DNA of 64,000 nucleotides from Gammaproteobacteria bacterium (GTDB lineage: Bacteria; Pseudomonadota; Gammaproteobacteria; Steroidobacterales; Steroidobacteraceae), in contig PKXS01000142.1 in NCBI GenBank assembly GCA_003132425.1, positions 653 to 64,652 of the forward strand, in the 5' to 3' direction. Every line of letters starts with the position of its first letter. Within the stretch, counting starts at the first letter, position 1. Below the pieces are notes generated by a model. The model saw only the letters and a program-made list of their open reading frames with translations. It did no database searches and was not told where the DNA came from. This document shows positions 9,358 to 61,748 of this stretch, piece by piece. The position numbers were made by a program, and so were the translations under genes.

Positions 9358-10320
9358 ATGACGAACGACGGCGAGCCCGGCATCCGCGGCTTTTTCAAGC
9401 GCCTGCGCGCAAAATTGAACCAAGGCCCCGCGTGGCTCACCGCCGATCTGGCAGAGCTGCTGCCCGGGGGCAAGATCGACGCGCAGATTCTGGACCGGCT
9501 CGAAACCAGGCTGATAACCTCCGACGTGGGCGTCGAAGCGTCCTCCCGCATCCTCGAGGAGTTGCGCAAACGCGTGGCGCGTCAAGAGCTCGACGATGTC
9601 GGCGCATTGCTCAAGGCATTGCACGCAGCCATGTTCGATATCCTGAAGCCGGTAGAACAGGCCCTCATCGTCGACCGGCAAATCAAGCCCTACGTGATTC
9701 TCGTCGTGGGGATCAACGGCTCAGGCAAAACCACCACCATCGGCAAGCTGGCGCGCCGGCTGATGGCCGACGGCTGCAGCGTCTTGCTGGCCGCCGGCGA
9801 CACCTTTCGCGCGGCGGCTCGCGAGCAATTGGAGGTGTGGGCGGCGCGCAATCAGGTGCCCATCGTCGCTCAGTCTGCCGGAGCGGAGCCCGCCGCCGTC
9901 ATATTCGACGCCCTGCAGGCGGCGCGCGCACGCGGGATCGATGTCCTGATTGCCGATACCGCCGGACGCCTACACACACAGACGCATCTGATGGAGGAAT
10001 TGAAGAAGATCAAACGCGTCCTTGCGAGGCTCGACCCCGGTGCGCCGCATGAAGTCTTGTTGGTGTTGGACGGCACGATCGGCCAGAACGCCATTGCGCA
10101 AGCGGAGCAGTTTCATAAGGGCCTGGGTGTCACCGGTCTGGTCATCACCAAGCTGGACGGCACGGCCAAGGGCGGCGTCGTGCTCGCCATCGCGCAAAAA
10201 CTGAAAATACCCATTCGCTTCATCGGCGTCGGCGAGCAGTTGGATGATTTCGGCGTGTTCAATGCCGCGGATTTCGTCTCCGCCCTATTGAAGTCCGAGC
10301 CCGGCGAAGCGGCGGCATGA
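9358..10320 (+). CDS. ftsY: Signal recognition particle receptor FtsY
   Basis: 320 aa NG domain with GINGSGKTTTIGKLA, DTAGRL, TKLDGTAKGG. Short N-terminus, without the long acidic A domain. Confidence 0.95.
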   Translation: MTNDGEPGIRGFFKRLRAKLNQGPAWLTADLAELLPGGKIDAQILDRLETRLITSDVGVEASSRILEELRKRVARQELDDVGALLKALHAAMFDILKPVEQALIVDRQIKPYVILVVGINGSGKTTTIGKLARRLMADGCSVLLAAGDTFRAAAREQLEVWAARNQVPIVAQSAGAEPAAVIFDALQAARARGIDVLIADTAGRLHTQTHLMEELKKIKRVLARLDPGAPHEVLLVLDGTIGQNAIAQAEQFHKGLGVTGLVITKLDGTAKGGVVLAIAQKLKIPIRFIGVGEQLDDFGVFNAADFVSALLKSEPGEAAA

Positions 10321-20822: not shown

Positions 20823-22271
<1,449 letters not shown>

Positions 22272-22274
22272 TCA

Positions 22275-25200: not shown

Positions 25201-26804
25201 TGCTGGCGGAAATAATCGTACAAAGAGCGCACCTTCCTCGACAGCACCGGCATCGGGGTGTCGTCGCCCATCGACCCTACCGCTTCGCTTTCGTCCTCGG
25301 CCAGCACGCGGATGATCTCGTCGCGCTCCTCGGCCGACACGTTGAACAACTTTTGAAACAGCGACAGCGTGTCGCGATCAAAAGGCTCGGCCGCCAGCCG
25401 CGGATCGATGAGGTCGGTTTGCAAATACCGCACGCTCTTTTTGAGCCAGGCTTTGTAGGGATGGCGGCTCTTCAACAGGTCATCGACCCGCTTGGTATCC
25501 ATGAGCTCGGAGGTCTGTAAATCGAGCGCCAAGATTTCGCCGGGGCCCAATTTGCCCTTCTTAAGGACATCCTCCGGCGAGTAATCCCAGACGCCTGCTT
25601 CCGATGCGATGGTGATGTGCCGATTCTTGGTGATGACCCAGCGCGCGGGCCGCAGCCCATTGCGGTCCAGCGTGCAGCAGGCATAGCGGCCGTCGGTGAG
25701 CGCGATGCCGGCGGGGCCGTCCCAGGGCTCCATGTGGGTGGCATAGTATTCGTAGAATGCTTTGACATCCGGATCGATCATGTCGACCGACTGCCACGCC
25801 GGCGGCACCAACATCCGCATGGCATGCATCGGATCGAGGCCGCCGACCAGCAACAGTTCCAGCATGTTGTCGAGCGATTGCGAATCGGAACCCGTGAGCG
25901 TTACGACGGGCAAAATGTCGCTGAGGTCGGGCAGCAGCGGCGACCGAAACAGCGGACCGCGCGCCACCGCCCAACTGCGGTTGCCCTGCACCGTGTTGAT
26001 CTCGCCATTGTGCGCAAGATAGCGATACGGGTGGGCAAGCCGCCATTGCGGCAGCGTGTTGGTGGAAAAGCGCTGGTGAAATACGACCACCGAGGCCTCC
26101 ATCCGCGGATCCTTCAGGTCCGGATAGAACTGCGCCAGGAATTGCGGCATCACCATGCCTTTGTAGACGATGGTGCTCGCCGACAATGACGGGATGTAAA
26201 AGTCGGGGTCGTTCGCTTCCAAAGCCTTTTCGGTACGTCGCCGCGCCAAAAAAAGCTTGCGGTTGAAGACCGCCTCCTCGATGTCCTCGCCCGCATTGAC
26301 GAACACCTGCTCGATGGTGGGCAGCGTCTTGATGGCTTCCAGACCGCAGGCATTGGGGTCTACGGCCACGGAGCGAAAGCCTGCGACCTGCAATTTCTCC
26401 CGCTCAATGTGCTCGGTGAGAACCCGGCGCGCGTAGCCGGCCTTCGCCGAATCGCGGCTAAGGAACACCGAGCCTGCCGCGAACAGGTGATTGAGCGAGA
26501 ATCCGGCTTCGTGAGCCGCCGCCCGCAAGAAGCCCACGGGCTTCTTGATCAACAGACCACAGCCATCCCCCGTCTTGCCATCGGCGGCAATCGCACCGCG
26601 ATGGGTGAGACGATTGAGCGAGCTGATGGCTGTCTGCAGCACCCAATGACTGGGGTGATCGTCGAGACTCGCGATCAAGCCGAAACCACAGCAGTCCCTT
26701 TCATAGGTAGGCTTGTAAAGACCCCATTTCTCGATGCGCGGATCCTGAAGCCGAGGGTCCGCCTTCAGTGCCGAAAATTCCGCGCCAATACGCCGCTGTG
26801 CCAT
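22275..26804 (-). CDS. gltB: Glutamate synthase large subunit
   Basis: 1509 aa. N-terminal amidotransferase (CGFGLIA after processing), FMN/3Fe-4S central domains, C-terminal GXGXG beta-helix. Confidence 0.97.
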
Positions 26805-44254: not shown

Positions 44255-44788
44255 CTATGTGGAAGACGGTCCGCCGATGGGCGTGATCGTCGACGCCGGC
44301 GCCGGCTCCGGGGCCGCCGGCGCGGACGACGGGTAGGCAGGCGTCAGCACCACAGGCGCCGCCGGTTTCGGCATCGCCATCGGCTTCGGCATCGCAACTG
44401 GCTTCGGCATCGAAACCGGTTTCGGCGTTGCCACCGGCCTCGCAATCGCCACCGGAGTCGGCGCGGCAACGGGCTTCGGCATCGCCATCGGTTTCGGCAT
44501 CGCCATCGGTTTCGGCACCGACACTGGTTTCGGCATCACAATGGGTGTCGGCTTCGAAACGGCCTTGACGGCGACAGGCTTGGCTTTGGCCTTAGCCTTC
44601 CTCGGCGCAGCCTTAGCCGCTCTTTTCGCGGCCTTAAGCGGTTTGCTCCGCCTTTTTGCCTTCGCCTTCACCGGGTGCGTCTTGCGTCTCGCAGCGCGCA
44701 GCTTCCTTCGCGCGACGCTCGATTTTGCGGCTGCGCGCTTGGCCTTTCTTGCCACCGGACGCTTCTTAGATTTGCTCTTCTTTGCCAT
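44255..44788 (-). CDS. Lys/Ala-rich histone H1-like (AlgP-like) protein with PKPxAM hexapeptide repeats
   Basis: ATG at 44788 (MAKKSKSKKRPVARKAKRAAAK...). The C-terminal half is about 11 tandem hexapeptides (MPKPVA/MPKPMA). Confidence 0.6.
   Translation of the reverse strand: MAKKSKSKKRPVARKAKRAAAKSSVARRKLRAARRKTHPVKAKAKRRSKPLKAAKRAAKAAPRKAKAKAKPVAVKAVSKPTPIVMPKPVSVPKPMAMPKPMAMPKPVAAPTPVAIARPVATPKPVSMPKPVAMPKPMAMPKPAAPVVLTPAYPSSAPAAPEPAPASTITPIGGPSST
44364..44561. repeat. 18-nt tandem repeat, about 11 copies (coding)
   Basis: Units ggyttcggcatcgccatc read directly (for example 44364-44381, 44382-44399, 44472-44489, 44490-44507). In frame with CDS 44255..44788. Confidence 0.9.
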
Positions 44789-44905
44789 GGTCCCTCTACT
44801 CCTCGCGGTCGTGTCACTACATGCTGTGAGAGTAGCCCTGAACAAGTCCGCTGTCATCTGCGTCTGCTGCTGGAGTCGGTCACGAGGATTGCGTAGGCTG
44901 CCCAC

Positions 44906-45559
44906 GTGCTACCGACAGAACCCGTCCGCCCGTTGCAAGATGTGTGGCTGCGACCCAGACGCGTGATTCGCGAATTATCCGCGCGGCCCATCGGCGTGGT
45001 CGATTACCTGTTGGGGTCGGCGCAAGGCGTCGCCACTTGGCTCGCCGTGAGCAGGATCCAAGAGCTGGGAGCCAGCAAAAGCGTCGAGGAAATCATCGCC
45101 AGGGCCTTCGTCATCGGACCCCCATTGGGCGTTGCCACGCTGTTTTTGCTGTCTGCCATTTATGCGCGTCTCGCGAATCGCGCAGGCGCGGGGCCTACGC
45201 GTACCCAAATGTTCCACGTGCTGGCCTACGGCGGCGTGCCCATCGTCGCATCGCTGGGGATTTGGCTGGTAACCGCGCTGCTGGTCGGCGAGACCACTTT
45301 CGTCGATACGCCGCGCCCTGATTTGGAAGGCTTTGCGGCGCTATTGTTACAGGCGCAAATCATCGCGCAGACCGTGCTGTTTTTCTGGAACGTGCTGCTG
45401 CAAGTGATGGGACTCAGCGAAATCCAGGGCGTTACGCCGGGCCGGGCATTCTTGGTGTGGCTCTTGGGCCAGGTCCTGGGGGCGCTCGCAATGACGCTGA
45501 TTGCGATTGTATTGGTGGCCTTGGGCCTTAAGCTTGCGATCGGCCCGGCGGCCGGCTAA
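44906..45559 (+). CDS. Yip1-family integral membrane protein
   Basis: 217 aa, GTG start. N-terminal LWLRPRRVIREL-type segment followed by five hydrophobic helices. Confidence 0.55.
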   Translation: MLPTEPVRPLQDVWLRPRRVIRELSARPIGVVDYLLGSAQGVATWLAVSRIQELGASKSVEEIIARAFVIGPPLGVATLFLLSAIYARLANRAGAGPTRTQMFHVLAYGGVPIVASLGIWLVTALLVGETTFVDTPRPDLEGFAALLLQAQIIAQTVLFFWNVLLQVMGLSEIQGVTPGRAFLVWLLGQVLGALAMTLIAIVLVALGLKLAIGPAAG

Positions 45560-45924
45560 GCCGCCTGGGAGGCCAATTCCTCAGGCTGGTTCGGCGCCGC
45601 CGGCAATCCGACCGGTACCTCCTCAAGACGTGCGACAACCGGTTTTGCAGCCGGCCGCCGGGCAACCGGGGTTCGCGTTTTCCGGGGAGCCGCCGCCTTT
45701 GCGCGCTTCCATGCAAGCGCGGCGGTCTCGGCTTTCTTGCGGGCCTGTTTCGCGGCTTTCTTCCATTGCTTGGACAATTTGCGGGCTCGCTTGAGCCGCG
45801 CCTTCGCCGCACGCACCCGCTGTTTTGCCGCTTGCGCGCGCACCGCGATCTTTTCCGCGTCCTGGCTCAGGCGTTGCGCCGCAGCACTCATATTGGCCCG
45901 GGCCTTTGAACCAGCAGTCGCCAC
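45556..45924 (-). CDS. Lys/Ala-rich coiled-coil hypothetical protein
   Basis: 122-aa ORF (AAKQRVRAAKARLKRARKLSKQWKKAAKQARKKAE...). Its 3' end overlaps the Yip1 gene stop by 4 nt. Confidence 0.45.
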   Translation of the reverse strand: MATAGSKARANMSAAAQRLSQDAEKIAVRAQAAKQRVRAAKARLKRARKLSKQWKKAAKQARKKAETAALAWKRAKAAAPRKTRTPVARRPAAKPVVARLEEVPVGLPAAPNQPEELASQAA

Positions 45925-46661: not shown

Positions 46662-46717
46662 TCAATCAGGTTACTAGCCTCGGAGAGCGAAACCAAACCT
46701 GGATCATTGACAGCGCA

Positions 46718-46752
46718 TGCATTTTTATGCAGGATATGTGCAACTTTATGCA
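46718..46752 (+). promoter_or_regulatory. Tandem ARG-box-like operator upstream of argR
   Basis: TGCATTTTTATGCA (46718-46731, perfect palindrome) and TGCAACTTTATGCA (46739-46752), 21 bp start-to-start. A TTGACA -35-like hexamer lies at 46707-46712. Confidence 0.6.
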
Positions 46753-46764
46753 TTGAGTCGGAAA

Positions 46765-47235
46765 ATGCTCAGACCTGCGGGAGAAATCACCAGCGCGCCG
46801 GCGCGCCGAACGATGCTTGCGAAGATCATTCGCGAGCAGGCGGTCGGCCGTCAATCGGAGCTGGTCGCCATGTTGCGCAGGTACGGCCATTTCGCGACCC
46901 AATCGAGCGTGAGCCGGGATTTGCGCGAGCTGGGCGTGGCCAAATTGGGCGATCGCTATGTTCTCTCCGGCGGGCTGCTCGAGGCGGCGGCCGCCAAGAA
47001 TGATTTCTCGACGCTGAAGCAATTCGTCAATGCACAGTTGACGGCAGGCACGAATCTGACCGTGTTGAAGACGACGGTGGGCTCGGCGCAGAGCGTGGCG
47101 GTGGCCATCGACACCGCCCGATGGCCCGAAGTGGTCGGTACGATTTCCGGCGACGACACGATATTCATCGCCACTGCCGGAGCACGCGAGCAACGCAAGC
47201 TCGGCGAGCGGCTGCGCGCCGTCTTCGGACGCTGA
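46765..47235 (+). CDS. argR: Arginine repressor
   Basis: Track ORF starts at 46717, inside the operator. The ATG at 46765 gives 156 aa with wHTH (QSELVAMLRRYGHFATQSSVSRDLRELG) and C-terminal oligomerisation domain (GTISGDDTIFI). The ATG at 46813 is also possible. Confidence 0.88.
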   Translation: MLRPAGEITSAPARRTMLAKIIREQAVGRQSELVAMLRRYGHFATQSSVSRDLRELGVAKLGDRYVLSGGLLEAAAAKNDFSTLKQFVNAQLTAGTNLTVLKTTVGSAQSVAVAIDTARWPEVVGTISGDDTIFIATAGAREQRKLGERLRAVFGR

Positions 47236-47240
47236 TCCGC

Positions 47241-48467
47241 ATGACATCGACCTCGCTCAAGGGCGCAGAGCCCATTCTTCTGGCATTTTCGGGCGGTTTG
47301 GATACCTCCTTCTGCGTCCCGTGGCTCAAGGATACCTACCGGCGCCCCGTCATCACCGTCACGGTCGATACAGGCGGCATCGACCGCGAAGCCGCGAAGT
47401 CGCTGGCCGAGCGTTCGGTTCTGCTCGGCGCCGTCGAGCATCATTTGATCGACGCGCGCGACGCGTACTTCGAGCATGTGCTCAAATTCTTGATCATGGG
47501 CAATGTGCGGCGCGGCGCGGTCTATCCCTTGTGCGTAGGCGCGGAGCGCGTGCTGCAGGCGCAAACCATCGCGCAATTCGCCCTCAAGCTCCAAACCAAG
47601 ATGGTCGCGCACGGTTGCACGGCCGCGGGCAATGATCAGGTTCGCTTCGAAGTGGCGCTGCGTACCTTGGCGCCGGATTTGGAAATTATCGCGCCGGTGC
47701 GCGACCGCGCATTCAAGCGGCCGGAACAGCTCAAGTATCTTGAGGATCATGGGCTGCCCATTCCGCCATTCGGCGGCGCGTATTCGGTGAACCGCGGGCT
47801 CTGGGGCGTCACCATCGGCGGCAAGGAGACGCTGACCTCTCAGGGCAGCATTCCCGACGGCGCGTGGGTGCTGTCCAAAGACGCCTATTCGAATCCACGC
47901 CCGCCCGAGCGTCACCGTATCGGTTTCGAGCGGGGCGTTCCGGCGAGCCTCGACGGCCAGAAGCTGCCCGCCGTGGCGATCATAGAGGCGCTCGAATCGC
48001 TGGCGGGCCCCTTCGGTATTGGGCGCGGCATTCACTTGGGCGACACCGTCATCGGCACCAAGGGGCGCGTGGCGTTCGAAGCGCCCGCCGCCGAGGTGCT
48101 GCTGACGGCGCATCGGGAGCTGGAGAAACTGGTGTTGACGGGCAAACAGGCGCGCATCAAGGACTCCGTGGCCCAGCCCTACGGCGACCTGGTGCACGAG
48201 GGACAGCACTTGGATCCGGTGTGCCGCGACATCGAAGCACTGCTCGTGTCCTCGCAAGCTCGCGTCAGCGGGGAGGCCATCGTGTCGTTCCGCCCGGGGT
48301 CGGTATTCGTCGAAGGGGTAAGCTCGCCGTATTCGCTGATGGCGGCATCCAAAGGCGTGTATGGGGAAGCCGCCGGCGAATGGACGCCGACCGATGCCCT
48401 CGGCTACTCGAAGATGCTCGCGCTGACCGGAATCTTTTACAGACGCGCGGGAGCGAATCGACGATGA
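47241..48467 (+). CDS. argG: Argininosuccinate synthase
   Basis: Trimmed to the ATG at 47241. AFSGGLDTS ATP-PPase motif, HGCTAAGNDQVRFE. 408 aa. Confidence 0.95.
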   Translation: MTSTSLKGAEPILLAFSGGLDTSFCVPWLKDTYRRPVITVTVDTGGIDREAAKSLAERSVLLGAVEHHLIDARDAYFEHVLKFLIMGNVRRGAVYPLCVGAERVLQAQTIAQFALKLQTKMVAHGCTAAGNDQVRFEVALRTLAPDLEIIAPVRDRAFKRPEQLKYLEDHGLPIPPFGGAYSVNRGLWGVTIGGKETLTSQGSIPDGAWVLSKDAYSNPRPPERHRIGFERGVPASLDGQKLPAVAIIEALESLAGPFGIGRGIHLGDTVIGTKGRVAFEAPAAEVLLTAHRELEKLVLTGKQARIKDSVAQPYGDLVHEGQHLDPVCRDIEALLVSSQARVSGEAIVSFRPGSVFVEGVSSPYSLMAASKGVYGEAAGEWTPTDALGYSKMLALTGIFYRRAGANRR

Positions 48468-49552
48468 ACGGCATGCGCACGGTGGTTGTCGACAAAATCG
48501 CCTCGGTCACTCAGGCGCTCGGCCTGGCGCACGAGATTCGCATCGCCACGGAAATTCCTTGCGAGGAAGGGGTGGTATTGGTCGTCGAGATTCTCAACAA
48601 CAAGTCGACTTACAATACGCTGGAGCTCACCAGCGGCCGCATGGCGAAAGTCGCGCGCGGCGACGTGGTGGTCGGCGCGCTGGGTCATCGCAAGGCTTTG
48701 TTCGGCTATTCGGGGCACATCCCGCAGGCGCTCAAACCCGGCGACGTGATTCAGATGCTGAATATCGGCGGTGTGCTCGGAATCTGCGATTCCGCGACGC
48801 CGGACAAGGGCAAGCCTTTCGACTGCAGGGTGCTGGGCACGGTGCTCGCATTTCCCTTTCTGGGTGAGCGCATCGGCGTCCCCGCCAAGGCAGGATACAG
48901 GGCCTTGGACTACGACGCGGCGCTCGACGTGCGCGGCGTGCCGGTAGTCGCGCTTGCCGGCACCTGCATGGAGGCCGGCAAGACCGCCGCGGCATCCGCC
49001 ATCATTGCGCGCATGCGGCATCGCGGATTGGTCGTGGATGCCTTCAAAGCGACCGGTGTTTCGCTGCGCCGTGACATCATGGCGTTCGAGGATTCGGGCG
49101 CGCGCCGCACGATGATCTTTACGGACCTAGGAATCGTGACCACCACGGAGAAGTGCGGCCCGGCGCTGACGCGCGCCATGCTCACGGAGATGGCAAGCGG
49201 GCAGCCCGACGTCATCGTGTTCGAGCTGGGAGACGGTCTGCTGGGAACATACGGCGTACAATCGATCCTGCGTCAACCGGATATCAAGGCCGCACTGACC
49301 TGCGTCGTCCTTTCCGCCAACGATCCGGTCGCCGCTTGGGGAGGCGTGAAGTTGCTGCGCGAGCGTTTCGGCATCGAGCCCAGCGTCGTGACGGGCCCCG
49401 CAACGGACAATCAGGTCGGCGTCCAGATCATTCGCGACCAAATGAACGTCGCGGCGTTCAATGCGATCAGCAGTCCCGCGGATCTGGGCGACCATATCCT
49501 CGCCAAGTTGCGGCTGAGCAATGTGCGCGAGCCCAAAGTCGCCGGCGAATGA
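48464..49552 (+). CDS. Uncharacterised P-loop protein embedded in the arginine operon
   Basis: 362 aa. ATGA overlaps with the argG stop (48464-48467) and the argC start (49549-49552). GTCMEAGKT loop at aa 166-174. Does not resemble any canonical Arg enzyme. Confidence 0.8.
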   Translation: MNGMRTVVVDKIASVTQALGLAHEIRIATEIPCEEGVVLVVEILNNKSTYNTLELTSGRMAKVARGDVVVGALGHRKALFGYSGHIPQALKPGDVIQMLNIGGVLGICDSATPDKGKPFDCRVLGTVLAFPFLGERIGVPAKAGYRALDYDAALDVRGVPVVALAGTCMEAGKTAAASAIIARMRHRGLVVDAFKATGVSLRRDIMAFEDSGARRTMIFTDLGIVTTTEKCGPALTRAMLTEMASGQPDVIVFELGDGLLGTYGVQSILRQPDIKAALTCVVLSANDPVAAWGGVKLLRERFGIEPSVVTGPATDNQVGVQIIRDQMNVAAFNAISSPADLGDHILAKLRLSNVREPKVAGE

Positions 49553-50610
49553 GCCCACGCATGCCAACGATCGTGCTGGGGGGCACCGGCTACGTCGCCG
49601 GCGAGCTGCTGCGGCTGATCGCCGGACACCCGCGGCTCGAGCTTGCCGCCATTCTGTCGGATAGCCAGCCGGGCGCGCCCGTCGCGGCCGCCTTCCCGCA
49701 TCTGCGCGGCGCCTATCCGCACCTGAAATTCGCGAGCATCGATGACATCGACGCCATCATGCGGGCCACGCGAGAATCGGCGCTGTTTTGCGCCGCGCCC
49801 CACGGCGTTGCCGCAGGGATCATCGATCGTCTGCTCAAGGCCGCGGAGAATTCGGGCACGCTCGCGCATTGCGTCGATATCTCGGCGGACTTTCGCTACA
49901 CGAGCGCCGGCGCCTACGAAGCCGTGTACAAACACGCACACGGCGCGCCGGCAAGACTCAGGGAATTTACCTGCGCCATTCCGGAACACTTGCAAAAGTC
50001 GCCGACTCCGCACGTCGCGCATCCAGGGTGCTTTGCGACCGCGACGCTGCTCGCGAGCGTGCCGCTATTGGCATTGGGATTGACCGATACACGCCTGTTC
50101 GTGACGGGCATTACCGGCAGCACCGGCTCCGGCCGCAAACCGACCGCAGGCACGCATCACCCGCAGCGGCACAGCGATCTGTATACCTACGGCGCGCTCA
50201 GTCATAGGCATGTGCCGGAGGTCATCGCCTGCGCGAAGCTCGCCACCGGCGTCGAGGCAGAATTCAATTTCGTGCCGCATTCAGGCCCCTTTGCCCGCGG
50301 CATTCACGTCACCGTGCAAGCGAGTCTGAAGAAACCGCTGAGCAGCGCTCAGGCGCTGCAAGCGTTGGCGTCGTACTACCAGCACTGTCCGTTCGTGCGG
50401 GTCGGCGATACGGCACCGCGCGTCAAGGATGTCGCCACCAGCAACTACGCGCATTTAAGCGCGGTGACGAACGGCAACTCGATCGCCGTCATGTCGGCGC
50501 TCGACAATCTCAACAAAGGCGCCGCGGGCGGCGCCGTGCAATGGATGAACCGGCTTTTGGGCTTTGAGGAAATAACAGGTCTCACGGCGCCGGCTCCCGG
50601 TTGGACCTGA
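49549..50610 (+). CDS. argC: N-acyl-gamma-glutamyl-phosphate reductase
   Basis: Trimmed to the ATG at 49549 (alternative 49561, MPTIVLGGTGYVAGELLRL). Active-site HPGCFATA; C-terminal DNLNKGAAGGAVQ. Confidence 0.92.
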   Translation: MSPRMPTIVLGGTGYVAGELLRLIAGHPRLELAAILSDSQPGAPVAAAFPHLRGAYPHLKFASIDDIDAIMRATRESALFCAAPHGVAAGIIDRLLKAAENSGTLAHCVDISADFRYTSAGAYEAVYKHAHGAPARLREFTCAIPEHLQKSPTPHVAHPGCFATATLLASVPLLALGLTDTRLFVTGITGSTGSGRKPTAGTHHPQRHSDLYTYGALSHRHVPEVIACAKLATGVEAEFNFVPHSGPFARGIHVTVQASLKKPLSSAQALQALASYYQHCPFVRVGDTAPRVKDVATSNYAHLSAVTNGNSIAVMSALDNLNKGAAGGAVQWMNRLLGFEEITGLTAPAPGWT

Positions 50611-50619
50611 GGTGCATCC

Positions 50620-51786
50620 ATGGCGGCAACGAGTCTGACGGCAAAAGCCCTTACCAGCCACCTCGCGCAAGTATTCGCGCAATATCCGATCGAAGTGGCG
50701 CACGGCGAGGGTGTTTGGCTGTACGCGCGCGATGGGCGCAAGATCCTGGACTTTTACGGCGGCCACGCGGTCGCGGGCCTTGGCTACGGCCACCCCCATT
50801 GGCTGGCCGCGCTCGAACGGCAAGCCCGGCAAATGGCGTTTCAAACCAATGCCGTGGGCGTGGCGATTCGCGAGCACGCCGCGGCGCGCTTGGCGAAGTT
50901 TGCAGACCTTGGTCTCGATACGGTGTTCTGGATCAATAGCGGCGCCGAAGCCAATGAGAATGCGCTCAAGCTGGCCTTCAAACAGACCGGGCGCGGCAAG
51001 GCCGTGGCGCTGGAGCAGGGATGGCACGGCAGAACCGCCGCGGCCGGCGCGGTCACCTGGGGAGCGTTACACACCTGGTATGGCTTTCCGCGCACGCCTT
51101 TCGATGCGAGCTTCGCGCCGCGCAACGATCCCGCCGCCGTTGAGCGATTCGTCGACCGAGATACGGCCGCCGTCATCGTCGAGCCGGTGCAGGGCGTGGG
51201 CGGCGCCTATGATGTGGGAAAACCGATGTTGCAGGCGCTGCGCCGGCGATGCGACGAGGTGGGCGCCTTACTGATCTTCGACGAAGTGCAATGCGGAATG
51301 GGCCGCACCGGATCGCCGTTCGCCGCGAATCATCACGGCGTGACGCCGGACATCATCACCACCGCAAAAGCATTGGGAAACGGCTTTCCGGTTTCAGCGT
51401 TGCTGCTGTCAAAGCACGTGGCGAAACATATCAAGTACAACGACATGGGAACGACCTTCGGCGGCGGCCCGATGGCCTGTGCTGCCGCCGAAGCCGTGAT
51501 CGAGACGATCGAATCGGAATCGCTGCTCGCGAACGTGCGTCAAGTGTCGGCGTACATCCGTTCGAACTGCATCGTCGGACCGATCACCGGGTCGCAGGGC
51601 GCCGGCTTTTTGCTGGGTTTGAAGACATCGCGGCCCGCCAAGGAAGTGCAGGCGGCGCTGCTGGAAAAAAATATTTTGACCGGTACCAGCGGCGACCCCA
51701 ACGTGCTGCGCCTGTTACCGGCGTACATTTTGAACGAAGGCCATGTCGATCAATTATGCGATGCGTTGGTGAAGATTCCGGCATGA
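50620..51786 (+). CDS. argD: Acyl-ornithine aminotransferase (class III PLP aminotransferase)
   Basis: 388 aa. GHPH, SGAEANE, DEVQCGMGRTG, TTAKALGNGFP (PLP lysine). Confidence 0.9.
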   Translation: MAATSLTAKALTSHLAQVFAQYPIEVAHGEGVWLYARDGRKILDFYGGHAVAGLGYGHPHWLAALERQARQMAFQTNAVGVAIREHAAARLAKFADLGLDTVFWINSGAEANENALKLAFKQTGRGKAVALEQGWHGRTAAAGAVTWGALHTWYGFPRTPFDASFAPRNDPAAVERFVDRDTAAVIVEPVQGVGGAYDVGKPMLQALRRRCDEVGALLIFDEVQCGMGRTGSPFAANHHGVTPDIITTAKALGNGFPVSALLLSKHVAKHIKYNDMGTTFGGGPMACAAAEAVIETIESESLLANVRQVSAYIRSNCIVGPITGSQGAGFLLGLKTSRPAKEVQAALLEKNILTGTSGDPNVLRLLPAYILNEGHVDQLCDALVKIPA

Positions 51787-52778
51787 GGCGCTTCATTGAT
51801 CTGGCGGATTTCAATCGAGATCAGATTCTCGACCTGCTGGCGCTCGCGCGGGCGCTGCAGGACAAGCCGGAACCGCGGGCGCTCGCCGGCAAGATCCTGG
51901 GGTTGGTGTTCTTGAACCCCTCCTTGCGCACGTTGGCCTCCTTCCAAGCGGGCATGGCGCGGCTCGGCGGGAGCTCGTTCGTGATCACGCCAGGGCAGGG
52001 CACCTGGCAGCTGGAAACTCATCTCAATGCAATCATGAACGGTGCCGCCGCCGAACATATTCGCGAAGGCATACCGGTGCTGGCATCCTACTGCGACGCG
52101 CTCGGCGTGCGCGCATTCGCCGATGGTCGAAGCTTGAACGAGGATCTGCGCGAGCCGCTGTTCGAAATGATTGACGGGCTATGCGATAAGCCGCTCATCA
52201 ATATGGAATCGGCAATGAACCACCCCTGCCAAGCACTCGCGGACTGGCGGACGATGGACGAGCTGAAGGTTCCGGCGCGGGCCAAATTCGTCTTAAGTTG
52301 GGTCTATCATCCAAAGGCGTTGCCCTTGGCGGTTCCCGCCGCGGCCGTGCAAATGGCGGCGATGCGCGGCATGGAAGTGGTGGTCCTGCGTCCGGACGGA
52401 TTTGCGATGCCGCCGCAAATCATGGACAAGGCCCGCTTGGCGGCCGCAAGCGCCGGCGGTTCGGTCACCGAGACCGGCGATCGCGCGGCCGCGATGGCCG
52501 GCGCGAGCGTGCTGTATGCGAAGGAATGGGGCACGACTCTGTATTACGGCGACACCGAGGCCGATTCACGCCTGCGGGCGGATCTTTCGCAATGGTGTGT
52601 CCGGGAAAGTTGGTTTACCGGCGCCCTGCCCGATGCCAAGCTCATGCATTGCCTACCGGTGCGCCGCAACGTCGCGGTCGCCGATGAAGTACTGGACGGT
52701 CCCCGCGCCGTGGTCAAGCGCGAGGCCTTCAATCGTCTGACGGTGCAGATGGCCGTTCTGCACCGCATGCTGGCGTGA
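51783..52778 (+). CDS. N-acyl-L-ornithine carbamoyltransferase (AOTCase/SOTCase-type, ArgF')
   Basis: ATGA overlap with argD. 331 aa. NPSLRT instead of the OTCase STRTR, plus HPCQ and HCLPVRRN. Gapless by-eye alignment to remembered Xanthomonas AOTCase. Confidence 0.87.
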   Translation: MRRFIDLADFNRDQILDLLALARALQDKPEPRALAGKILGLVFLNPSLRTLASFQAGMARLGGSSFVITPGQGTWQLETHLNAIMNGAAAEHIREGIPVLASYCDALGVRAFADGRSLNEDLREPLFEMIDGLCDKPLINMESAMNHPCQALADWRTMDELKVPARAKFVLSWVYHPKALPLAVPAAAVQMAAMRGMEVVVLRPDGFAMPPQIMDKARLAAASAGGSVTETGDRAAAMAGASVLYAKEWGTTLYYGDTEADSRLRADLSQWCVRESWFTGALPDAKLMHCLPVRRNVAVADEVLDGPRAVVKREAFNRLTVQMAVLHRMLA

Positions 52779-52802: not shown

Positions 52803-53750
52803 ATGATCATGAGCCGACCTGATCCTTCAGTTGCGGTGCGGGCGCTGAAGAGCGCCGCGCCTTATATCCGCATGTACAAGAACAAAGTTTTCGTCATCAA
52901 AGCGGGCGGCGCCGTGTTCAGCGACGAGATTTCCACGCGTGGTCTGATCGAACAAGTCGCGATCCTGCATCAGGTGGGCATCAAAACCGTATTGGTCCAC
53001 GGCGGGGGTCCGCAGCTCGACAGCCTGCAAGCGTCGTTGGGGATAGACACGCGCATGGTGAACGGCCGGCGCGTGACCGATCAGAAGTCGATCGACGTGA
53101 CATCGATGGTGCTCAACGGCCTCATCAACACCCGCATCTTAGGCATATGCCGGGAACTCGATATCGAAGCCATCGGATTGAGCGGCGTCGACGCCGGCCT
53201 CATACGCGCGCACAAGCGCCCGCCGGTCCCGGTGTCGGCAGGGTCGAGCGAAACCGTGGACTACGGCCTCGTCGGCGATATCGATTCCGTCAACACCATG
53301 GTCATCGAGAAGCTGTTGGCGGACGGTTTGATGCCGGTGGTCAGTCCACTATCGGCGGACTCGAACGGCACTTTGCTGAATATCAACGCCGACACGGTGG
53401 CGGCGGCTATCGGCGGCGCGCTCGCGGCGGAAAAACTGGTGCTATGCACCGGCGCGCCGGGAATTCTCGAGCGCGTCGGGGATCCGAGATCAGTGATCTC
53501 CTTCACGGACATCCAGGGCTTGAAGCGATTGCGCGACCAGGGCAGCTTGAAGGACGGTATGCTGCCCAAGGCGCTTGCCATCGAAAATGCGATTCGCGGC
53601 GGCGTGCGGCGCGTGCACGTGATAACGTACAAGTCGGCTGATAGTTTGCTCGCCGAAATCTTCACCAACGAGGGCACGGGCACGCTGGTGGTTGCGGATC
53701 TGAAGGCCTTGAGCCCCGCCGAGCAACAAAGCGCCGCGGCAAACGCTTAA
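52803..53750 (+). CDS. argB: Acetylglutamate kinase (stand-alone, no fused GNAT domain)
   Basis: 315 aa. VIKAGGA, VLVHGGGPQ, NINADTVAA. Confidence 0.93.
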   Translation: MIMSRPDPSVAVRALKSAAPYIRMYKNKVFVIKAGGAVFSDEISTRGLIEQVAILHQVGIKTVLVHGGGPQLDSLQASLGIDTRMVNGRRVTDQKSIDVTSMVLNGLINTRILGICRELDIEAIGLSGVDAGLIRAHKRPPVPVSAGSSETVDYGLVGDIDSVNTMVIEKLLADGLMPVVSPLSADSNGTLLNINADTVAAAIGGALAAEKLVLCTGAPGILERVGDPRSVISFTDIQGLKRLRDQGSLKDGMLPKALAIENAIRGGVRRVHVITYKSADSLLAEIFTNEGTGTLVVADLKALSPAEQQSAAANA

Positions 53751-53772: not shown

Positions 53773-54963
53773 ATGACTCGACTTTGGGACAAGGGGACTT
53801 TACTCGACGCGCGCGTCTTGAGCTACACCGCGGGGGACGATTACCTCCTGGATAACCGCCTGGTGCGTTACGACATTCAGGCATCCATCGCGCATGCCGA
53901 GATGCTCGGCGAGCAATCGCTCGTATCGACCAAGGATGTGGCCGAGATTCGCGACGCGTTGACCGCCATCGGCGCCGAACACGCGAGCGGCGCGTGGCGC
54001 ATCACGCTGGAGCAGGAAGATTGCCAAACGGCCATCGAGAACCTGCTCATCGCGCGCATCGGCGCGACCGGCGGACGCTTGCACGCGGGCCGCTCGCGCA
54101 ACGACCAAGTGCTCGCCGCCCTGCGCCTGTACCTAAGCGAGGCGGCGCAGGCGCTGCGCAACGGCGCAATCGCAGTCGCGGCGGCGCTCGAGGCCCTGGC
54201 CGCGCGCGACGGCGCCGTCGTGTTGCCCGGCTACACCCATATGCAGCAGGCGATGCCGAGCAGCGTCGCGCTGTGGGCGCTTGGGTTTGCATCCGAGATC
54301 CACGACGATGCCGAAGGTCTGCAACAGTGCCGGCGGCGCATCGCCAAGAATCCGCTGGGGTCGGCCGCGGGTTATGGAACGCCGAATCTTGACGTGAGCC
54401 GCGAGGCGACCCGCCGGCGGCTAGGCTTTGCGGTGAATCAGGAACCAGTGACCGCGGTTCAGCTGTCACGCGGCAAGGCGGAAGCGCAGCTATTGTTCGA
54501 GATCACGCTGCTCACCCAGGATACCGGACGGCTGGCGGCGGATTTATTGCTCTTCTATACGCAAGAGTTCGGTTTCGTGAGCCTGCCCGACGGTTTCACC
54601 ACCGGTTCTTCGATCATGCCGCAAAAGCGCAATCCCGATGTGTTCGAATTGATCCGCGGGCGAAGCGCGGTGGCGCAAGCGGCGCTGAACGAAGTGCTTG
54701 GCATTTCGCAAAAGCTCAGCTCCGGCTACCATCGTGATCTGCAGCTCATCAAGCAGCCGTTGTTTCGCGCCATCGATTCTTGTCAGCAGACGCTCGAGAT
54801 CTTGCCGAGCGCGCTCGAGGGGGTGCGTTTCAGAGCGGAAAATATCCGGCTGGATCCCGGCATTCATGCCGCCGCCGCGGCAAATGCCCTGGTGGCGAAA
54901 GAAGGCATTCCATTTCGCGAGGCCTACCAGCGGGTGGCCGGCACGCTCAAGAAAACAAAATGA
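53773..54963 (+). CDS. argH: Argininosuccinate lyase (short form)
   Basis: 396 aa. RYDIQASIAHAEML, GRSRNDQV, fumarate-lyase signature GSSIMPQKRNPD. Ends right after GIPFREAYQRV. Confidence 0.9.
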   Translation: MTRLWDKGTLLDARVLSYTAGDDYLLDNRLVRYDIQASIAHAEMLGEQSLVSTKDVAEIRDALTAIGAEHASGAWRITLEQEDCQTAIENLLIARIGATGGRLHAGRSRNDQVLAALRLYLSEAAQALRNGAIAVAAALEALAARDGAVVLPGYTHMQQAMPSSVALWALGFASEIHDDAEGLQQCRRRIAKNPLGSAAGYGTPNLDVSREATRRRLGFAVNQEPVTAVQLSRGKAEAQLLFEITLLTQDTGRLAADLLLFYTQEFGFVSLPDGFTTGSSIMPQKRNPDVFELIRGRSAVAQAALNEVLGISQKLSSGYHRDLQLIKQPLFRAIDSCQQTLEILPSALEGVRFRAENIRLDPGIHAAAAANALVAKEGIPFREAYQRVAGTLKKTK

Positions 54964-55397
54964 CGATTTGGCGCAGCCTGCTCACCCTCGACGCCTTGAA
55001 TGCCGGAGGCGACGGCACACTCATCCGGCACCTGGGCATCGTATTCACGGAAATCGGCGCGGACTTCGTGCGCGGCACCATGCCCGTGGATGAGCGCACC
55101 AAGCAACCCTTTGGTTTGCTGCACGGTGGGGCGTCGGTCGCCCTCGCCGAGACCCTGGGCAGCATGGGCGCGACAATGTGCGTCGATAGGTCTCAATATG
55201 TGTGCGTGGGCCAGGAGATCAACGCCAATCATGTGCGCGCGGCGCGCAGCGGCCAGGTCACCGGCACGGCACGGCCGCTGCACATCGGCGGCCGCACTCA
55301 GGTTTGGACCGTCGAAATCCTCAATGAGGCCGGAAAATTGGTTTGCACCTCGCGATTGACCATGGCGGTCATCCGGGTCGACGGCCGCGACCCATGA
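54960..55397 (+). CDS. PaaI-family hotdog thioesterase
   Basis: ATGA overlap with the argH stop. 145 aa. QPFGLLHGGASVALAETLGS motif typical of PaaI/YigI/EntH-type thioesterases. Confidence 0.85.
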   Translation: MTIWRSLLTLDALNAGGDGTLIRHLGIVFTEIGADFVRGTMPVDERTKQPFGLLHGGASVALAETLGSMGATMCVDRSQYVCVGQEINANHVRAARSGQVTGTARPLHIGGRTQVWTVEILNEAGKLVCTSRLTMAVIRVDGRDP

Positions 55398-58981: not shown

Positions 58982-59003
58982 GGTGAACACTTCTCCGGCT
59001 GCC

Positions 59004-61748
59004 ATGAACGCACTCAAACTCGTCCTCGTCGACGGCTCCTCGTATCTGTATCGAGCCTTTCATGCATTGCCGCCGCTCAACAATTCCAAGGGCGAGCCGA
59101 CCGGCGCTGTGCTCGGCGTGCTGAACATGCTGACCAAGCTGGTGAAGGATGAATCGCCGCAGCGGATCGCGGTGGTGTTCGATGCCCCGGGGCGCACTTT
59201 CCGAGACGATCTGTTCGATCAGTACAAGGCGCATCGCCCACCGATGCCCGATGATTTGCGCTCGCAAGTGCAACCGCTGCTGGATGCGGTCGAAGCGATG
59301 GGACTGCCGCTGCTGCGCATACCCGGCGTGGAAGCGGATGACGTCATCGGCACGCTTGCGAAGCAAGGCGCCGACGCGGGCTACGAGGTATTGATCTCGA
59401 CCGGCGACAAGGACATGGCGCAACTCGTCGGCCCGCGCATCGGGCTGATCAACACCATGAGCAATACGCGACTCGATCGCGATGGGGTGAAAGCCAAGTT
59501 CGATGTATTTCCTGAACAGATCGTCGACTATCTCGCGCTGGTCGGCGACAGCTCGGACAACATTCCGGGCGTCACCGGCGTGGGCCCCAAGACTGCGGCG
59601 AAGTGGCTGCTTCAATATCAGACTCTGGATGCATTGATCGCTCACGCCGGCGAGATCGGCGGCAAGGTGGGCGAGAACCTGCGCAACGAACTTGCGATCC
59701 TCGATCTGTCGCGCAGGCTCGCCACCATCGATATCGCGCTCAAGTTGTCGTTGACGCCCGAAGAACTTAGCGCAGGTCCGCCGGACCTGTCGCGGCTGCG
59801 GGAATTGTATGGGCGACTCGAGCTGCGTTCGCTACTCAAGTCTCTGGATGCGCCTGCGTCCGTCGACGCGCAAACGGAAAACACCTCGGCCGCAGGCCCA
59901 CCGAGCGCCGCCACGATGGCTCAACCCACTCAAGCGTCCGCTGGCGACTACCGGAAGATCGTCTCGCAGCAGGCAATGGACTCGTGGCTCGTCAGGCTCG
60001 CGGCGGCGGCGCTCGTTTCCTTCGACACCGAGACCGATAGCCTCGACTATATGCGCGCGCGAATCGTGGGTGTGTCGTTTGCAATCGCGCCGGGAGAAGC
60101 GGCTTACGTCCCGCTGACCCATGATTATGCGGGCGCGCCGGAGCAGCTTAATCTGGAAACAGTGTTGGCGGCGCTCAAACCCCTGCTGGAAGATGCCGCG
60201 AGACCCAAACTAGGACATCACCTCAAATACGACATGCATATCCTTGCGAACTACGGCATCGCGCTTGCCGGTCAGCGATATGATTCGATGTTGGAGTCCT
60301 ATGTGCTGGACAGCGTGGCGACGCGCCATGATATGGATTCGACCGCCGAGAAATATCTCGGCATCAAGACCATTCATTTCGAGGATGTCGCGGGAAAGGG
60401 TGCGAAGCAAATCACCTTCAACCAAGTCGATGTGGACCGGGCAACCGAATACTCCGCTGAGGACGCCGATGTGACTCTGCGGCTGCACCTGGCGCTATGG
60501 CCGAAAATCGAAGCGCTGCCGCGCTTGAAACAACTCTATGAGACCATCGAGCAACCGCTGGTCGCGGTGTTGTATCGCATGGAGCGCACCGGCGTGCTCG
60601 TGGATCCTGAACTTCTCAAGATACAGAGCGCGCAACTAGCCGCCCGCATGTTGGAGTTGCAGGCGCAGGCTCATATCGAGGCCGGCGGCGCATTCAATGT
60701 CGATTCACCGAAGCAACTGCAGGAGATTTTATTCGGCAAGCTCGGCATTCCGGTGATTCGCAAGACGCCCACAGGGCAGCCCTCGACGGCGGAGGATGTG
60801 CTCGAAGAGCTGGCCGCGGCGCATTCCTTGCCAAAATTGATTTTGGAATATCGCGGCGTCGCCAAACTCAAATCCACCTATACGGAGAAGCTGCCCGAGC
60901 AGATCAATCCGCAGACCGGGCGCATCCACACTTCTTATCATCAAGGCGTCGCCGCCACGGGCAGGCTCTCTTCGACCGACCCGAATCTGCAAAACATCCC
61001 GATCCGCACGCCGGAGGGGCGGCGCATCCGCCAGGCCTTCGTGGCGCCGCCGGGGCATTCGCTCATCGCCGCCGATTACTCGCAAATCGAATTGCGCATC
61101 ATGGCGCATCTGTCCGGCGACGAGGCCCTATTGCGAGCCTTCGCCGAGGATCGCGACATTCACCGGGCGACCGCAGCGGAGGTGTTCGGCACCTCGCTCG
61201 CGGCGGTCAGTGCCGATCAGCGACGCTCCGCCAAAGCAATCAACTTCGGCTTGATTTACGGAATGTCGGCTTTCGGACTTGCGCGTCAATTAGGGATAGG
61301 GCGCGGCGAAGCGCAAAAATATGTGGAGCTTTACTTCGAGCGCTATCCCGGCGTGAAGCGCTATATGGACGAGACACGCCGCCAGGCGCGCGAGGCGGGC
61401 TTCGTGGAAACGGTATTTGGCCGCAGGCTATATCTGCCTGAAATTCAGTCCCGCAACCAGGCGCTGCGCCAGTATGCGGAACGCAGCGCCATCAACGCAC
61501 CCATGCAGGGAACGGCTGCCGATATTATCAAGCGCGCCATGATCGACGTCGATGCGTGGCTGCAGAGTTCGCGCGTCCCCGCGCGGCTGATCATGCAAGT
61601 CCACGATGAATTGGTGCTGGAGGCGGCGGACTCGGCGGTCCAGTCGGTGTCGGAGCAATTGCGTGAACGGATGGCGAATGCGGCGCAGCTCAAGGTGCCG
61701 CTCAAAGTCGATGTGGGCGTCGGCCGCAATTGGGACGAAGCGCACTAA
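59004..61748 (+). CDS. polA: DNA polymerase I
   Basis: MNALKLVLVDGSSYLYRAFHA (5' nuclease), 3'-5' exonuclease FDTETDSL, polymerase motifs DYSQIELR and QVHDEL. Track start GTG 58983 is an alternative. Confidence 0.97.
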   Translation: MNALKLVLVDGSSYLYRAFHALPPLNNSKGEPTGAVLGVLNMLTKLVKDESPQRIAVVFDAPGRTFRDDLFDQYKAHRPPMPDDLRSQVQPLLDAVEAMGLPLLRIPGVEADDVIGTLAKQGADAGYEVLISTGDKDMAQLVGPRIGLINTMSNTRLDRDGVKAKFDVFPEQIVDYLALVGDSSDNIPGVTGVGPKTAAKWLLQYQTLDALIAHAGEIGGKVGENLRNELAILDLSRRLATIDIALKLSLTPEELSAGPPDLSRLRELYGRLELRSLLKSLDAPASVDAQTENTSAAGPPSAATMAQPTQASAGDYRKIVSQQAMDSWLVRLAAAALVSFDTETDSLDYMRARIVGVSFAIAPGEAAYVPLTHDYAGAPEQLNLETVLAALKPLLEDAARPKLGHHLKYDMHILANYGIALAGQRYDSMLESYVLDSVATRHDMDSTAEKYLGIKTIHFEDVAGKGAKQITFNQVDVDRATEYSAEDADVTLRLHLALWPKIEALPRLKQLYETIEQPLVAVLYRMERTGVLVDPELLKIQSAQLAARMLELQAQAHIEAGGAFNVDSPKQLQEILFGKLGIPVIRKTPTGQPSTAEDVLEELAAAHSLPKLILEYRGVAKLKSTYTEKLPEQINPQTGRIHTSYHQGVAATGRLSSTDPNLQNIPIRTPEGRRIRQAFVAPPGHSLIAADYSQIELRIMAHLSGDEALLRAFAEDRDIHRATAAEVFGTSLAAVSADQRRSAKAINFGLIYGMSAFGLARQLGIGRGEAQKYVELYFERYPGVKRYMDETRRQAREAGFVETVFGRRLYLPEIQSRNQALRQYAERSAINAPMQGTAADIIKRAMIDVDAWLQSSRVPARLIMQVHDELVLEAADSAVQSVSEQLRERMANAAQLKVPLKVDVGVGRNWDEAH

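Follow-up and report, generated by a model that had tools for sequence, protein, structure and literature searches.

A BioD-like P-loop protein encoded between argG and argC in a Steroidobacteraceae bacterium is a candidate N-succinylglutamate synthase

Classical ArgA, which N-acylates glutamate in the committed step of arginine biosynthesis, is composed of a kinase-like domain and a GNAT domain. In Bacteroides, the N-succinylglutamate synthase BT3761 belongs to a succinyl-type pathway and is encoded in an operon with the order GNAT-argG-argC-argD (PMC8121099). Here, we describe gene X, a 362-codon open reading frame (ORF) that lies between argG and argC in a 64,000-nt stretch of a Gammaproteobacteria genome of the family Steroidobacteraceae (assembly GCA_003132425.1, contig PKXS01000142.1, positions 653 to 64,652; hereafter the window). 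X is predicted to be a non-GNAT N-succinylglutamate synthase. GNAT-type ArgA, the short N-acetylglutamate synthases (NAGS) and BT3761 share with X the proposed reaction and pathway position, but their fold is unrelated to that of X, which would thus be an analogue that arose by non-orthologous displacement.

The same role has already been predicted for ACG33_RS14135 (A0A127FCT3), a hypothetical protein in the arg cluster of Steroidobacter denitrificans, in the 2026 GapMind preprint (bioRxiv 10.1101/2024.10.14.618325). S. denitrificans grows in minimal medium without any protein similar to characterised ArgA or other N-acylglutamate synthases, and it is also without ArgE (bioRxiv 10.1101/2024.10.14.618325). 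According to the same source, homologues of ACG33_RS14135 are 'virtually always' found in arg operons and never alongside classical ArgA homologues, 90% of 70 neighbouring ArgF' proteins carry A/P/S/V at position 92, and Foldseek weakly ties the AFDB model of ACG33_RS14135 to the DgcN structure 7XRJ (E 1.4e-7, with a root-mean-square deviation of 5.6 A). X resembles ACG33_RS14135 in its bacterial family, in the kind of arg cluster that contains it and in the proposed role, and is very probably its orthologue, as judged from taxonomy, operon position, and family size and structure. The reasoning of the preprint is also like ours in its use of the neighbourhood, ArgF' position 92 and the distant link to DgcN. 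The main idea is therefore already published as a prediction, and the hypothesis of an earlier note on this DNA, made from the letters of the window, is an independent rediscovery; the window adds confirmation and detail rather than a discovery. The additions are the failed tests of DUF1611 membership, an N-terminal domain that could not be placed, a conserved set of phosphoryl-transfer residues, a three-residue succinylornithine carbamoyltransferase (SOTCase) signature in all linked ArgF' proteins, an X-kinase fusion, a GNAT counter-example, and a coupled hotdog thioesterase in a clade lacking ArgE. The preprint contains neither the new N-domain nor the BioD-like residues with the ATP-ligase alternative, and likewise neither the fusion, the GNAT co-occurrence nor the coupled thioesterase. 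Our literature search found no other paper that mentions ACG33_RS14135, and searches on DUF1611 with arginine and on DgcN with D-glutamate returned nothing directly useful.

X is a real gene. As the earlier note had claimed, the ORF list and the nucleotide sequence agree on a 362-aa frame with ATGA overlaps on both sides. The start codon of X shares the ATGA at 48464-48467 with the argG stop (4-nt overlap), and its TGA stop shares the ATGA at 49549-49552 with the first possible start of argC, whose other possible start is at 49561. Some homologues are annotated as 359-aa forms that begin at the equivalent of the in-frame ATG at 48473 (M4); the start at 48464 is favoured because a GGAG lies approximately 10 nt upstream. 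An identical protein is present in public collections, where its 90% cluster, labelled Steroidobacteraceae, contains 980 members. A scan of genome contigs, which yielded close Steroidobacteraceae relatives only, recovered relatives of X at 83-92% identity in genomes of 80 different GTDB species (loci L001-L080). An exhaustive HMMER search returned 1449 representatives of 50%-identity clusters at E<=1e-3, 210 of them at E<=1e-30, and the range of the family covers Steroidobacteraceae, Woeseia, Acidobacteriota, Myxococcota-like metagenome-assembled genomes (MAGs) and MAGs labelled archaeal. No Pfam family matched X at E<0.01, the NCBIfam scan gave nothing above threshold (the sole match was MobB, 19.7 bits), and a sequence search of the PDB with X gave no match. 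The X family is large and has no Pfam or NCBIfam model.

The genomic context of X is that of arginine biosynthesis. In the window, the gene order is argR-argG-X-argC-argD-argF'-argB-argH followed by a hotdog thioesterase, and the neighbours of X score at or near the curated cut-offs of Pfam and NCBIfam (Table 1). Within the reach of each contig, the order argR-argG-X-argC-argD-argF'-argB-argH is shared by all 80 Steroidobacteraceae loci. Of 13 more distant contexts, 11 have X in an arg cluster, with argC as the next gene downstream, so that the arginine linkage of homologues, which had been named as a check on the original proposal, holds with the exceptions of locus L093 and of the X-kinase fusion described below. 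The order argG-X-argC-argD-argF'-argB-(M20)-argH is found in Acidobacteriota (L081, L083), on an unplaced 797-kb Joint Genome Institute contig, in L084 and L085, and again in L089 (labelled archaeal), L090 (Myxococcota-like) and L092 (Woeseia). On the 5.98-Mb contig of L091, the order is X-argC-argD-argB-M20-argR-argG-argH, and the operon starts with X-argC-argD-argB-M20, which is the block that leads from glutamate to ornithine. Five of the clusters (L082, L084, L085, L089 and L091) encode an M20 deacylase of the ArgE/DapE type besides X. With seven steps assigned in these clusters, the N-acylation of glutamate alone is left with no gene. X is linked to arginine genes where the first step otherwise has no gene, the exceptions being L082 and L093, which are discussed below. 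The absence of ArgA and ArgJ from the window cluster, also claimed in the earlier note, is confirmed at the level of the cluster; tblastn of the 64-kb window, in which not every small ORF was scanned, agrees, with no second amino-acid-kinase domain, M20 deacylase or L082-type GNAT, and the ten large window ORFs that were checked are unrelated housekeeping genes.

The acyl group can be predicted from the carbamoyltransferase of the cluster. The window ArgF' is most similar to the N-acetylornithine carbamoyltransferase of X. campestris (XcAOTCase), the best-scoring PDB sequence being its E92A mutant. Glu92, Asn185 and Lys302 are characteristic of acetylornithine enzymes, whereas succinylornithine enzymes have A/S/P/V/Q, P and V/I/E at these positions (PMC4581275). 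Alignment to the X. campestris structures places Ala, Pro and Ala of the window ArgF' at XcAOTCase positions 92, 185 and 302. X-linked ArgF' proteins have Pro185 throughout (80/80), and neither Glu92 nor Lys302 occurs in any of them. The residues found are A/S/V/Q/T at position 92 and A/S/V/I/E at position 302; the published SOTCase lists contain neither Thr for the former position nor Ala or Ser for the latter (PMC4581275). Judged from this signature, the pathway most likely runs on N-succinyl intermediates, with succinyl rather than acetyl as the acyl group.

A gene fusion ties X physically to the consumer of the step-1 product. P0229, annotated as a 626-aa 'acetylglutamate kinase', is the only fusion among 133 hits. 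It consists of a full-length X, a linker and an amino-acid-kinase (ArgB-like) domain, and is 673 aa long when translated from the in-frame ATG upstream, at L086:8860. We retained it as a fusion because it is clean, contains the full X from the upstream ATG and recurs in several samples. Three other candidates, P0176 (X-ArgC), P0209 (ArgG-X) and P0214, were rejected as true fusions, since their long low-complexity Arg/Ala/Pro stretches are typical of frameshifted, merged gene calls; these show adjacency only. The fusion gene is located outside any arg cluster, beside a divergently oriented gene of the arginase family. Its kinase domain is closest to the N-acetylglutamate kinases of cyanobacteria and plants (150 bits to 2jj4), with 'KYGG' changed to 'KIAD' and 'NINAD' changed to 'AVASD'. 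Changes in these motifs affect the phosphate-binding glycines and the substrate-binding asparagines of N-acetylglutamate kinase. Because both motifs are altered, the kinase domain may be regulatory, as in classical N-acetylglutamate synthase, whose build of a kinase domain plus a catalytic domain is mirrored by the fusion.

To describe the anatomy of X, we aligned 44 and 78 relatives, down to about 28-33% identity, and generated an AlphaFold2 model from the 78-sequence alignment (mean predicted local distance difference test score, pLDDT, 93.6; predicted template modelling score 0.90). The model consists of two domains, and at the level of this prediction the fold class, a P-loop domain joined to a beta domain, can be taken as established. 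The residues K11, S14, R76, P87, G102-G103, G172-K173-T174, K195, G198, D204, G212-A213, E254-x-G256-D257-G258, D287 and G311 are invariant from the 44 to the 78 relatives. The N-terminal domain is all-beta in the model and again confident when modelled alone (pLDDT 89), and Foldseek finds no structural neighbour for it in the PDB (best E 0.96, TM 0.2-0.3), which bears out the earlier description of the first 150 residues or so as beta-rich and impossible to place. The GTxxxxGKT loop given in the earlier note at nt 48959-48985 is present as GTCMEAGKT at residues 166-174, and its other quoted motifs are all found, two in the N-terminal domain at residues 66-87 and 91-106 and VIVFELGDGLLGTYG at residues 250-264.

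The P-loop domain belongs to a broad neighbourhood of nucleotide-binding proteins. The best 50 PDB matches of X in Foldseek include the signal recognition particle (SRP)/FtsY GTPases, BioD, FleN, CTP synthase and HypB (E 1.2e-6 to 7.2e-5), with BioD at ranks 2, 7, 9, 11 and 13 and with the highest target-normalised TM scores (0.5-0.6). A search of the PDB sequences with the family profile gave BioD as the best match (E 3.3e-4), followed by FtsY and MobB, and no others. In the BioD match, 'vaaaKl..tG' of the profile lies against 'vavcKPvqTG' of BioD, with K195 on the BioD 'KP' lysine, which we take to be Lys37 in E. coli numbering; K195 would be its functional equivalent. The E254-L-G-D-G motif presumably corresponds to the E-G-A-G-G of BioD (Glu115-GAGG-type), a likeness of motifs rather than of superposed structures. 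X has the GxxxxGK[ST] Walker A, with invariant Lys and Thr, of BioD-like amidoligases, and shares with BioD, CobB/CobQ and the N-domain of CTP synthase the GTxxxxGKT form of this loop and, presumably, a Lys that ends strand 2 and an acidic residue with a Gly-rich turn after the Walker-B strand. In contrast to X, BioD has no N-terminal beta domain, and the likeness to it is sub-threshold and covers the nucleotide-binding core only. Weak Pfam matches among the 78 members are to DUF1611_C (64 members), MobB (55), CbiA (PF01656; 52, best E 1.3e-5, below the gathering score) and AAA_26 (PF13500; 10, best E 0.014, below threshold), all within about 40 residues around the P-loop. The assignment of the loop to the BioD/CobB-CobQ/DUF1611 type in the earlier note thus stands as far as weak matches of those types exist, but they are sub-threshold and confined to this short segment. 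No Acetyltransf_* match, which would mark a GNAT domain, was obtained in X or the 78 relatives.

Membership of X in the DUF1611/DgcN family was rejected. PF07755 (DUF1611_C) matches the window X at 13.5 bits, below the cut-off of 25, and over profile positions 12-50 of 201, which are P-loop residues only; P0330 is the only family member that just passes the cut-off (25.8 bits). Residues 1-150 of X have no Pfam match to a DUF1611-type N-terminal domain, which we take to be Rossmann-like (PF17396), and are all-beta in the model instead. The likeness to DUF1611 remarked on in the earlier note therefore does not amount to membership. PDB sequence searches with X, the family profile and the member closest to DUF1611 gave generic P-loop matches or none, and a motif scan of all fetched loci found no DgcN or DUF1611 sequence. 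DgcN (DUF1611, PF07755, PDB 7XRJ; Yu et al. 2023, ISME J) does resemble X in that its P-loop domain lies in the same broad BioD-like neighbourhood, and resembles the proposed X in N-acylating glutamate; it differs in acting on D-glutamate rather than L-glutamate, in transferring acetyl rather than probably succinyl, and in being catabolic rather than biosynthetic. X should be labelled as an unmodelled family with a new beta domain and a BioD-like P-loop domain, and the DUF1611 label should be dropped.

Our best explanation of these data is that X is the first enzyme of an N-succinyl arginine pathway with succinyl-CoA as the donor, to which we assign a probability of roughly 0.45; that X makes N-succinyl-L-glutamate, the predicted substrate of ArgB, we consider likely. 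The earlier proposal that X N-acylates glutamate is the one best supported by the context, the co-occurrence with M20, the L091 operon and the fusion. The proposal has been published before, and X should still be called a 'candidate'. We infer the reaction, the donor and the roles of the residues as follows. X would place a succinyl group on the alpha-amino group of L-glutamate, and the resulting N-succinyl-L-glutamate would pass through ArgB, ArgC, ArgD, ArgF' acting as succinylornithine carbamoyltransferase, a desuccinylase, ArgG and ArgH. As an unrelated two-domain protein, X would stand in for GNAT-type ArgA or ArgJ. The acyl donor would be succinyl-CoA, after the distant relative DgcN, which as cited in the preprint is reported to use acetyl-CoA on D-glutamate (bioRxiv 10.1101/2024.10.14.618325). 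In this scheme, K173 and T174 of the P-loop would hold the nucleotide-diphosphate part of CoA, E254 or K195 would help to deprotonate or position the glutamate amine, and the invariant arginines R76 and R203 would bind substrate carboxylates. Given the role, succinyl-CoA is the likelier donor, because to our knowledge every known enzyme of this step uses acyl-CoA or transacetylation and because of the acetyl-CoA use of DgcN; ATP with free succinate is a serious second choice.

Several observations weigh against this explanation. The closest characterised glutamate N-acyltransferase is distant: the DgcN structure 7XRJ is absent from the best 50 Foldseek matches of X, neither X, the family profile nor the member closest to DUF1611 matches any DUF1611 structure in the PDB at E<=10, and the N-domain of X is unlike the presumably Rossmann-like one of DUF1611. 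The invariant Walker A Lys and Thr, the BioD-like K195 and E254 at the Walker-B position form a phosphoryl-transfer pattern, which favours an ATP ligase as far as the donor is concerned. L082, from a MAG labelled Woesearchaeota, has the same arg cluster with X and M20 and, directly 5' of argG, a 157-aa GNAT (L082:7193-7666, +). The best NCBIfam matches of this GNAT, none of which reaches its cut-off, are of the N-acetylglutamate-synthase type (NF005840, NF005921 and the ArgA portion of a model for an ArgH-ArgA fusion). X and GNAT-type synthases hence do not strictly exclude each other. In a Planctomycetota MAG, an X homologue lies outside any arg cluster (L093:9001-10632, +). The search for ArgA and ArgJ in this organism covers the 64-kb window, and the published entry in GapMind is a 'predicted' ArgA (bioRxiv 10.1101/2024.10.14.618325).

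The phosphoryl-transfer pattern leads to an alternative with the same pathway role and other chemistry, an ATP-dependent ligase, which was also the second option of the earlier note. In this reading, X joins succinate to L-glutamate in the manner of the amidoligases BioD, CobQ and CTP synthase and requires no CoA ester. The P-loop would bind Mg-ATP, succinate would be converted to succinyl phosphate, and attack by the alpha-amine of glutamate would release N-succinylglutamate, ADP and phosphate. BioD, CobB/CobQ and CTP synthase form C-N bonds through phosphorylated intermediates. This chemistry, the invariant BioD-like residues and the place of BioD as the best profile match keep the ATP-dependent route alive: G172-K173-T174, K195 and E254-x-G256 make up, by analogy with BioD enzymology, the full set for Mg-NTP binding and gamma-phosphate transfer, and CTP synthase is present besides BioD among the structural matches. 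However, the sequence similarity to BioD spans only about 50 residues, and the SRP GTPases match BioD in Foldseek score, so that the match may reflect the general SIMIBI fold only. DUF1611_C is marginally the commonest of the weak Pfam matches, DgcN is the one characterised glutamate N-acyltransferase of the fold neighbourhood and is reported with acetyl-CoA, and the precedent of the characterised step-1 enzymes is likewise against a ligase. We regard the ligase as possible but unlikely. A more specific version, in which the P-loop domain makes succinyl phosphate, the all-beta domain presents L-glutamate and the X-kinase fusion is an arginine-regulated form like classical NAGS, is a little more doubtful still.

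A different role for X in the same pathway was considered as well. X could be a P-loop NTPase that assists or regulates ArgC or ArgB, that channels metabolites or repairs the labile acyl-glutamyl phosphate, or that provides or activates the acyl donor, while an unlinked GNAT performs the first step. The position of X directly 5' of argC in every arg-cluster context and the kinase-like fusion in one lineage fit a physical partner of ArgC or ArgB, and the closest folds include regulatory SIMIBI NTPases (SRP, FleN/MinD, HypB and MobB). The short-NAGS-like GNAT that co-occurs with X in L082 and the unlinked homologue in L093 point the same way, as does the scope of the GNAT search, which covers the window here and classical P. 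aeruginosa ArgA only in the preprint (bioRxiv 10.1101/2024.10.14.618325). Against this, complete clusters would have no step-1 gene in 10 of 11 cases, X is the first gene of the L091 operon, and the N-domain, which is large and strongly conserved and contains invariant Arg and Gly residues, resembles a substrate-binding module rather than a switch. The growth of S. denitrificans in minimal medium without a known N-acylglutamate synthase homologue is also hard to reconcile with an accessory function (bioRxiv 10.1101/2024.10.14.618325), which we consider improbable, somewhat more so than the ligase. The idea that X replaces ArgE, as an N-succinylcitrulline or N-succinylornithine desuccinylase, draws on the lack of an M20 gene in the window and within 10 kb on either side in the 80 Steroidobacteraceae loci, on the reported absence of ArgE from S. 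denitrificans (bioRxiv 10.1101/2024.10.14.618325), and on the argE-like gene that lies between argG and argC in the Xanthomonas arg cluster. It was rejected, because X and an M20 ArgE-type gene share an operon in five distant clusters and X is therefore not the deacylase; we also know of no P-loop NTPase fold that serves as an amidohydrolase, and the idea is hardly credible.

Table 1. Coordinates of gene X, its parts, the neighbouring arg genes and the X-kinase fusion (window positions unless a locus is given).
Feature	Position	Strand	Basis or remark
Gene X, predicted non-GNAT N-succinylglutamate synthase	48464..49552	+	362-aa ORF between argG and argC
X N-terminal all-beta domain, residues ~1-150	48464..48919	+	Secondary structure, pLDDT; invariant R76, P87, G102-G103
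X C-terminal SIMIBI-type (BioD-like) P-loop domain, residues ~160-362	48941..49552	+	Foldseek, family profile, weak Pfam matches
Walker A G166-TCMEAG-K173-T174	48959..48985	+	Sequence; G172, K173, T174 invariant in 44 and 78 sequences
Codon of invariant K195, end of strand beta2	49046..49048	+	Aligns with BioD 'KP' lysine
E254-L-G-D-G motif after strand 250-254, Walker-B position	49223..49237	+	Sequence, secondary structure; E254, G256 invariant
argR, arginine repressor, first cluster gene	46717..47235	+	Pfam Arg_repressor and Arg_repressor_C; TIGR01529 3.8e-29; 5' of argG in most related loci
argG, argininosuccinate synthase	47241..48467	+	Pfam Arginosuc_synth and Arginosuc_syn_C; TIGR00032 277 bits, cut-off 268
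argC	49549..50610	+	TIGR01850 279 bits, cut-off 233.6; immediately 3' of X in all arg-cluster contexts examined
argD, N-acylornithine aminotransferase (class III)	50620..51786	+	Pfam Aminotran_3 5.6e-87; best NCBIfam matches argD-type, below equivalog cut-offs
argF', N-acylornithine carbamoyltransferase, succinylornithine-type signature	51783..52778	+	NF003384 331 bits, cut-off 288
argB, N-acylglutamate kinase; KAGG, HGGG, NINAD motifs intact	52803..53750	+	TIGR00761 209.7 bits, cut-off 151.3
argH, argininosuccinate lyase, short 396-aa form	53773..54963	+	TIGR00838 301.8 bits, cut-off 279.5, profile positions 23-389 of 455
Hotdog-fold thioesterase, 145 aa (4HBT, EntH/MenI-like)	54960..55397	+	Pfam 4HBT 2.2e-18; NF007631 170 bits, cut-off 226
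X-kinase fusion	L086:8860-10881; L087:6077-7957 and L088:402-2282 as called		Recurs in at least three metagenome samples

An ATGA overlap couples translation of the hotdog thioesterase at the end of the window cluster to that of argH. Of 65 informative Steroidobacteraceae loci, 52 have this gene after argH, and in 45 the two genes overlap by 4 nt. Clusters with an M20 ArgE lack the thioesterase, and the Steroidobacteraceae loci have no M20 ArgE within 10 kb on either side. The thioesterase may be connected with the use of acyl-CoA by X, or with the desuccinylase step that is missing. In the window ArgH, which is short, the ASL_C2 match is marginal; similarly short forms (398-400 aa) are encoded in the Woeseia L092 and the L082 clusters, and forms of 448-469 aa in the other X-linked clusters. 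Two Acidobacteriota clusters without M20 encode a conserved 150-aa protein just 3' of argB (L081:16289-16741; L083:15360-15812, +), which has no Pfam or NCBIfam match; a relationship of this protein to the window thioesterase was rejected, as no sequence relation was found. In L093, a NUDIX hydrolase gene starts 4 nt after the X homologue, and NUDIX genes also occur near the L085 and L092 clusters, which may be coincidence.

Elsewhere, the window encodes ordinary housekeeping functions of the chromosome: glutamate synthase (gltB/gltD), a gamma-glutamyltranspeptidase, ftsY, coaBC (401-1678), a panE-like gene, an Ada/AlkA fusion, a prolyl oligopeptidase, a phosphoesterase and polA, with listed regions at 20823-26804 (-), 6486-8198 (-), 9358-10320 (+) and 58983-61748 (+). 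In its position 3' of the arg cluster, polA shows synteny with locus L092 of Woeseia. The ORF list further contains two very Lys/Ala/Pro-rich proteins, at 44255-44905 (-) and 45556-45924 (-), which may not be real genes; one has an AKKSKSKKR-type basic region followed by tandem 'PKPVxMPKPMAM' repeats and resembles histone-H1-like or AlgP-like proteins.

If X is the N-succinylglutamate synthase proposed here, the committed step of arginine biosynthesis would have a third solution, unrelated in structure to the other two, GNAT-type ArgA and ArgJ. The assignment would give a function to more than 1000 sequence clusters that lack a Pfam or NCBIfam model, and the N-succinyl pathway variant would then reach far outside the Bacteroidota. 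An ATP-dependent route, if true, would be surprising; it would define a new enzyme class for this step, with free succinate and ATP as its direct inputs. In several lineages that are abundant in soil and sediment, including Steroidobacteraceae, Woeseia and Acidobacteriota, the role of X would close a gap in metabolic reconstruction; without the assignment of this family, such lineages are wrongly predicted to be arginine auxotrophs.

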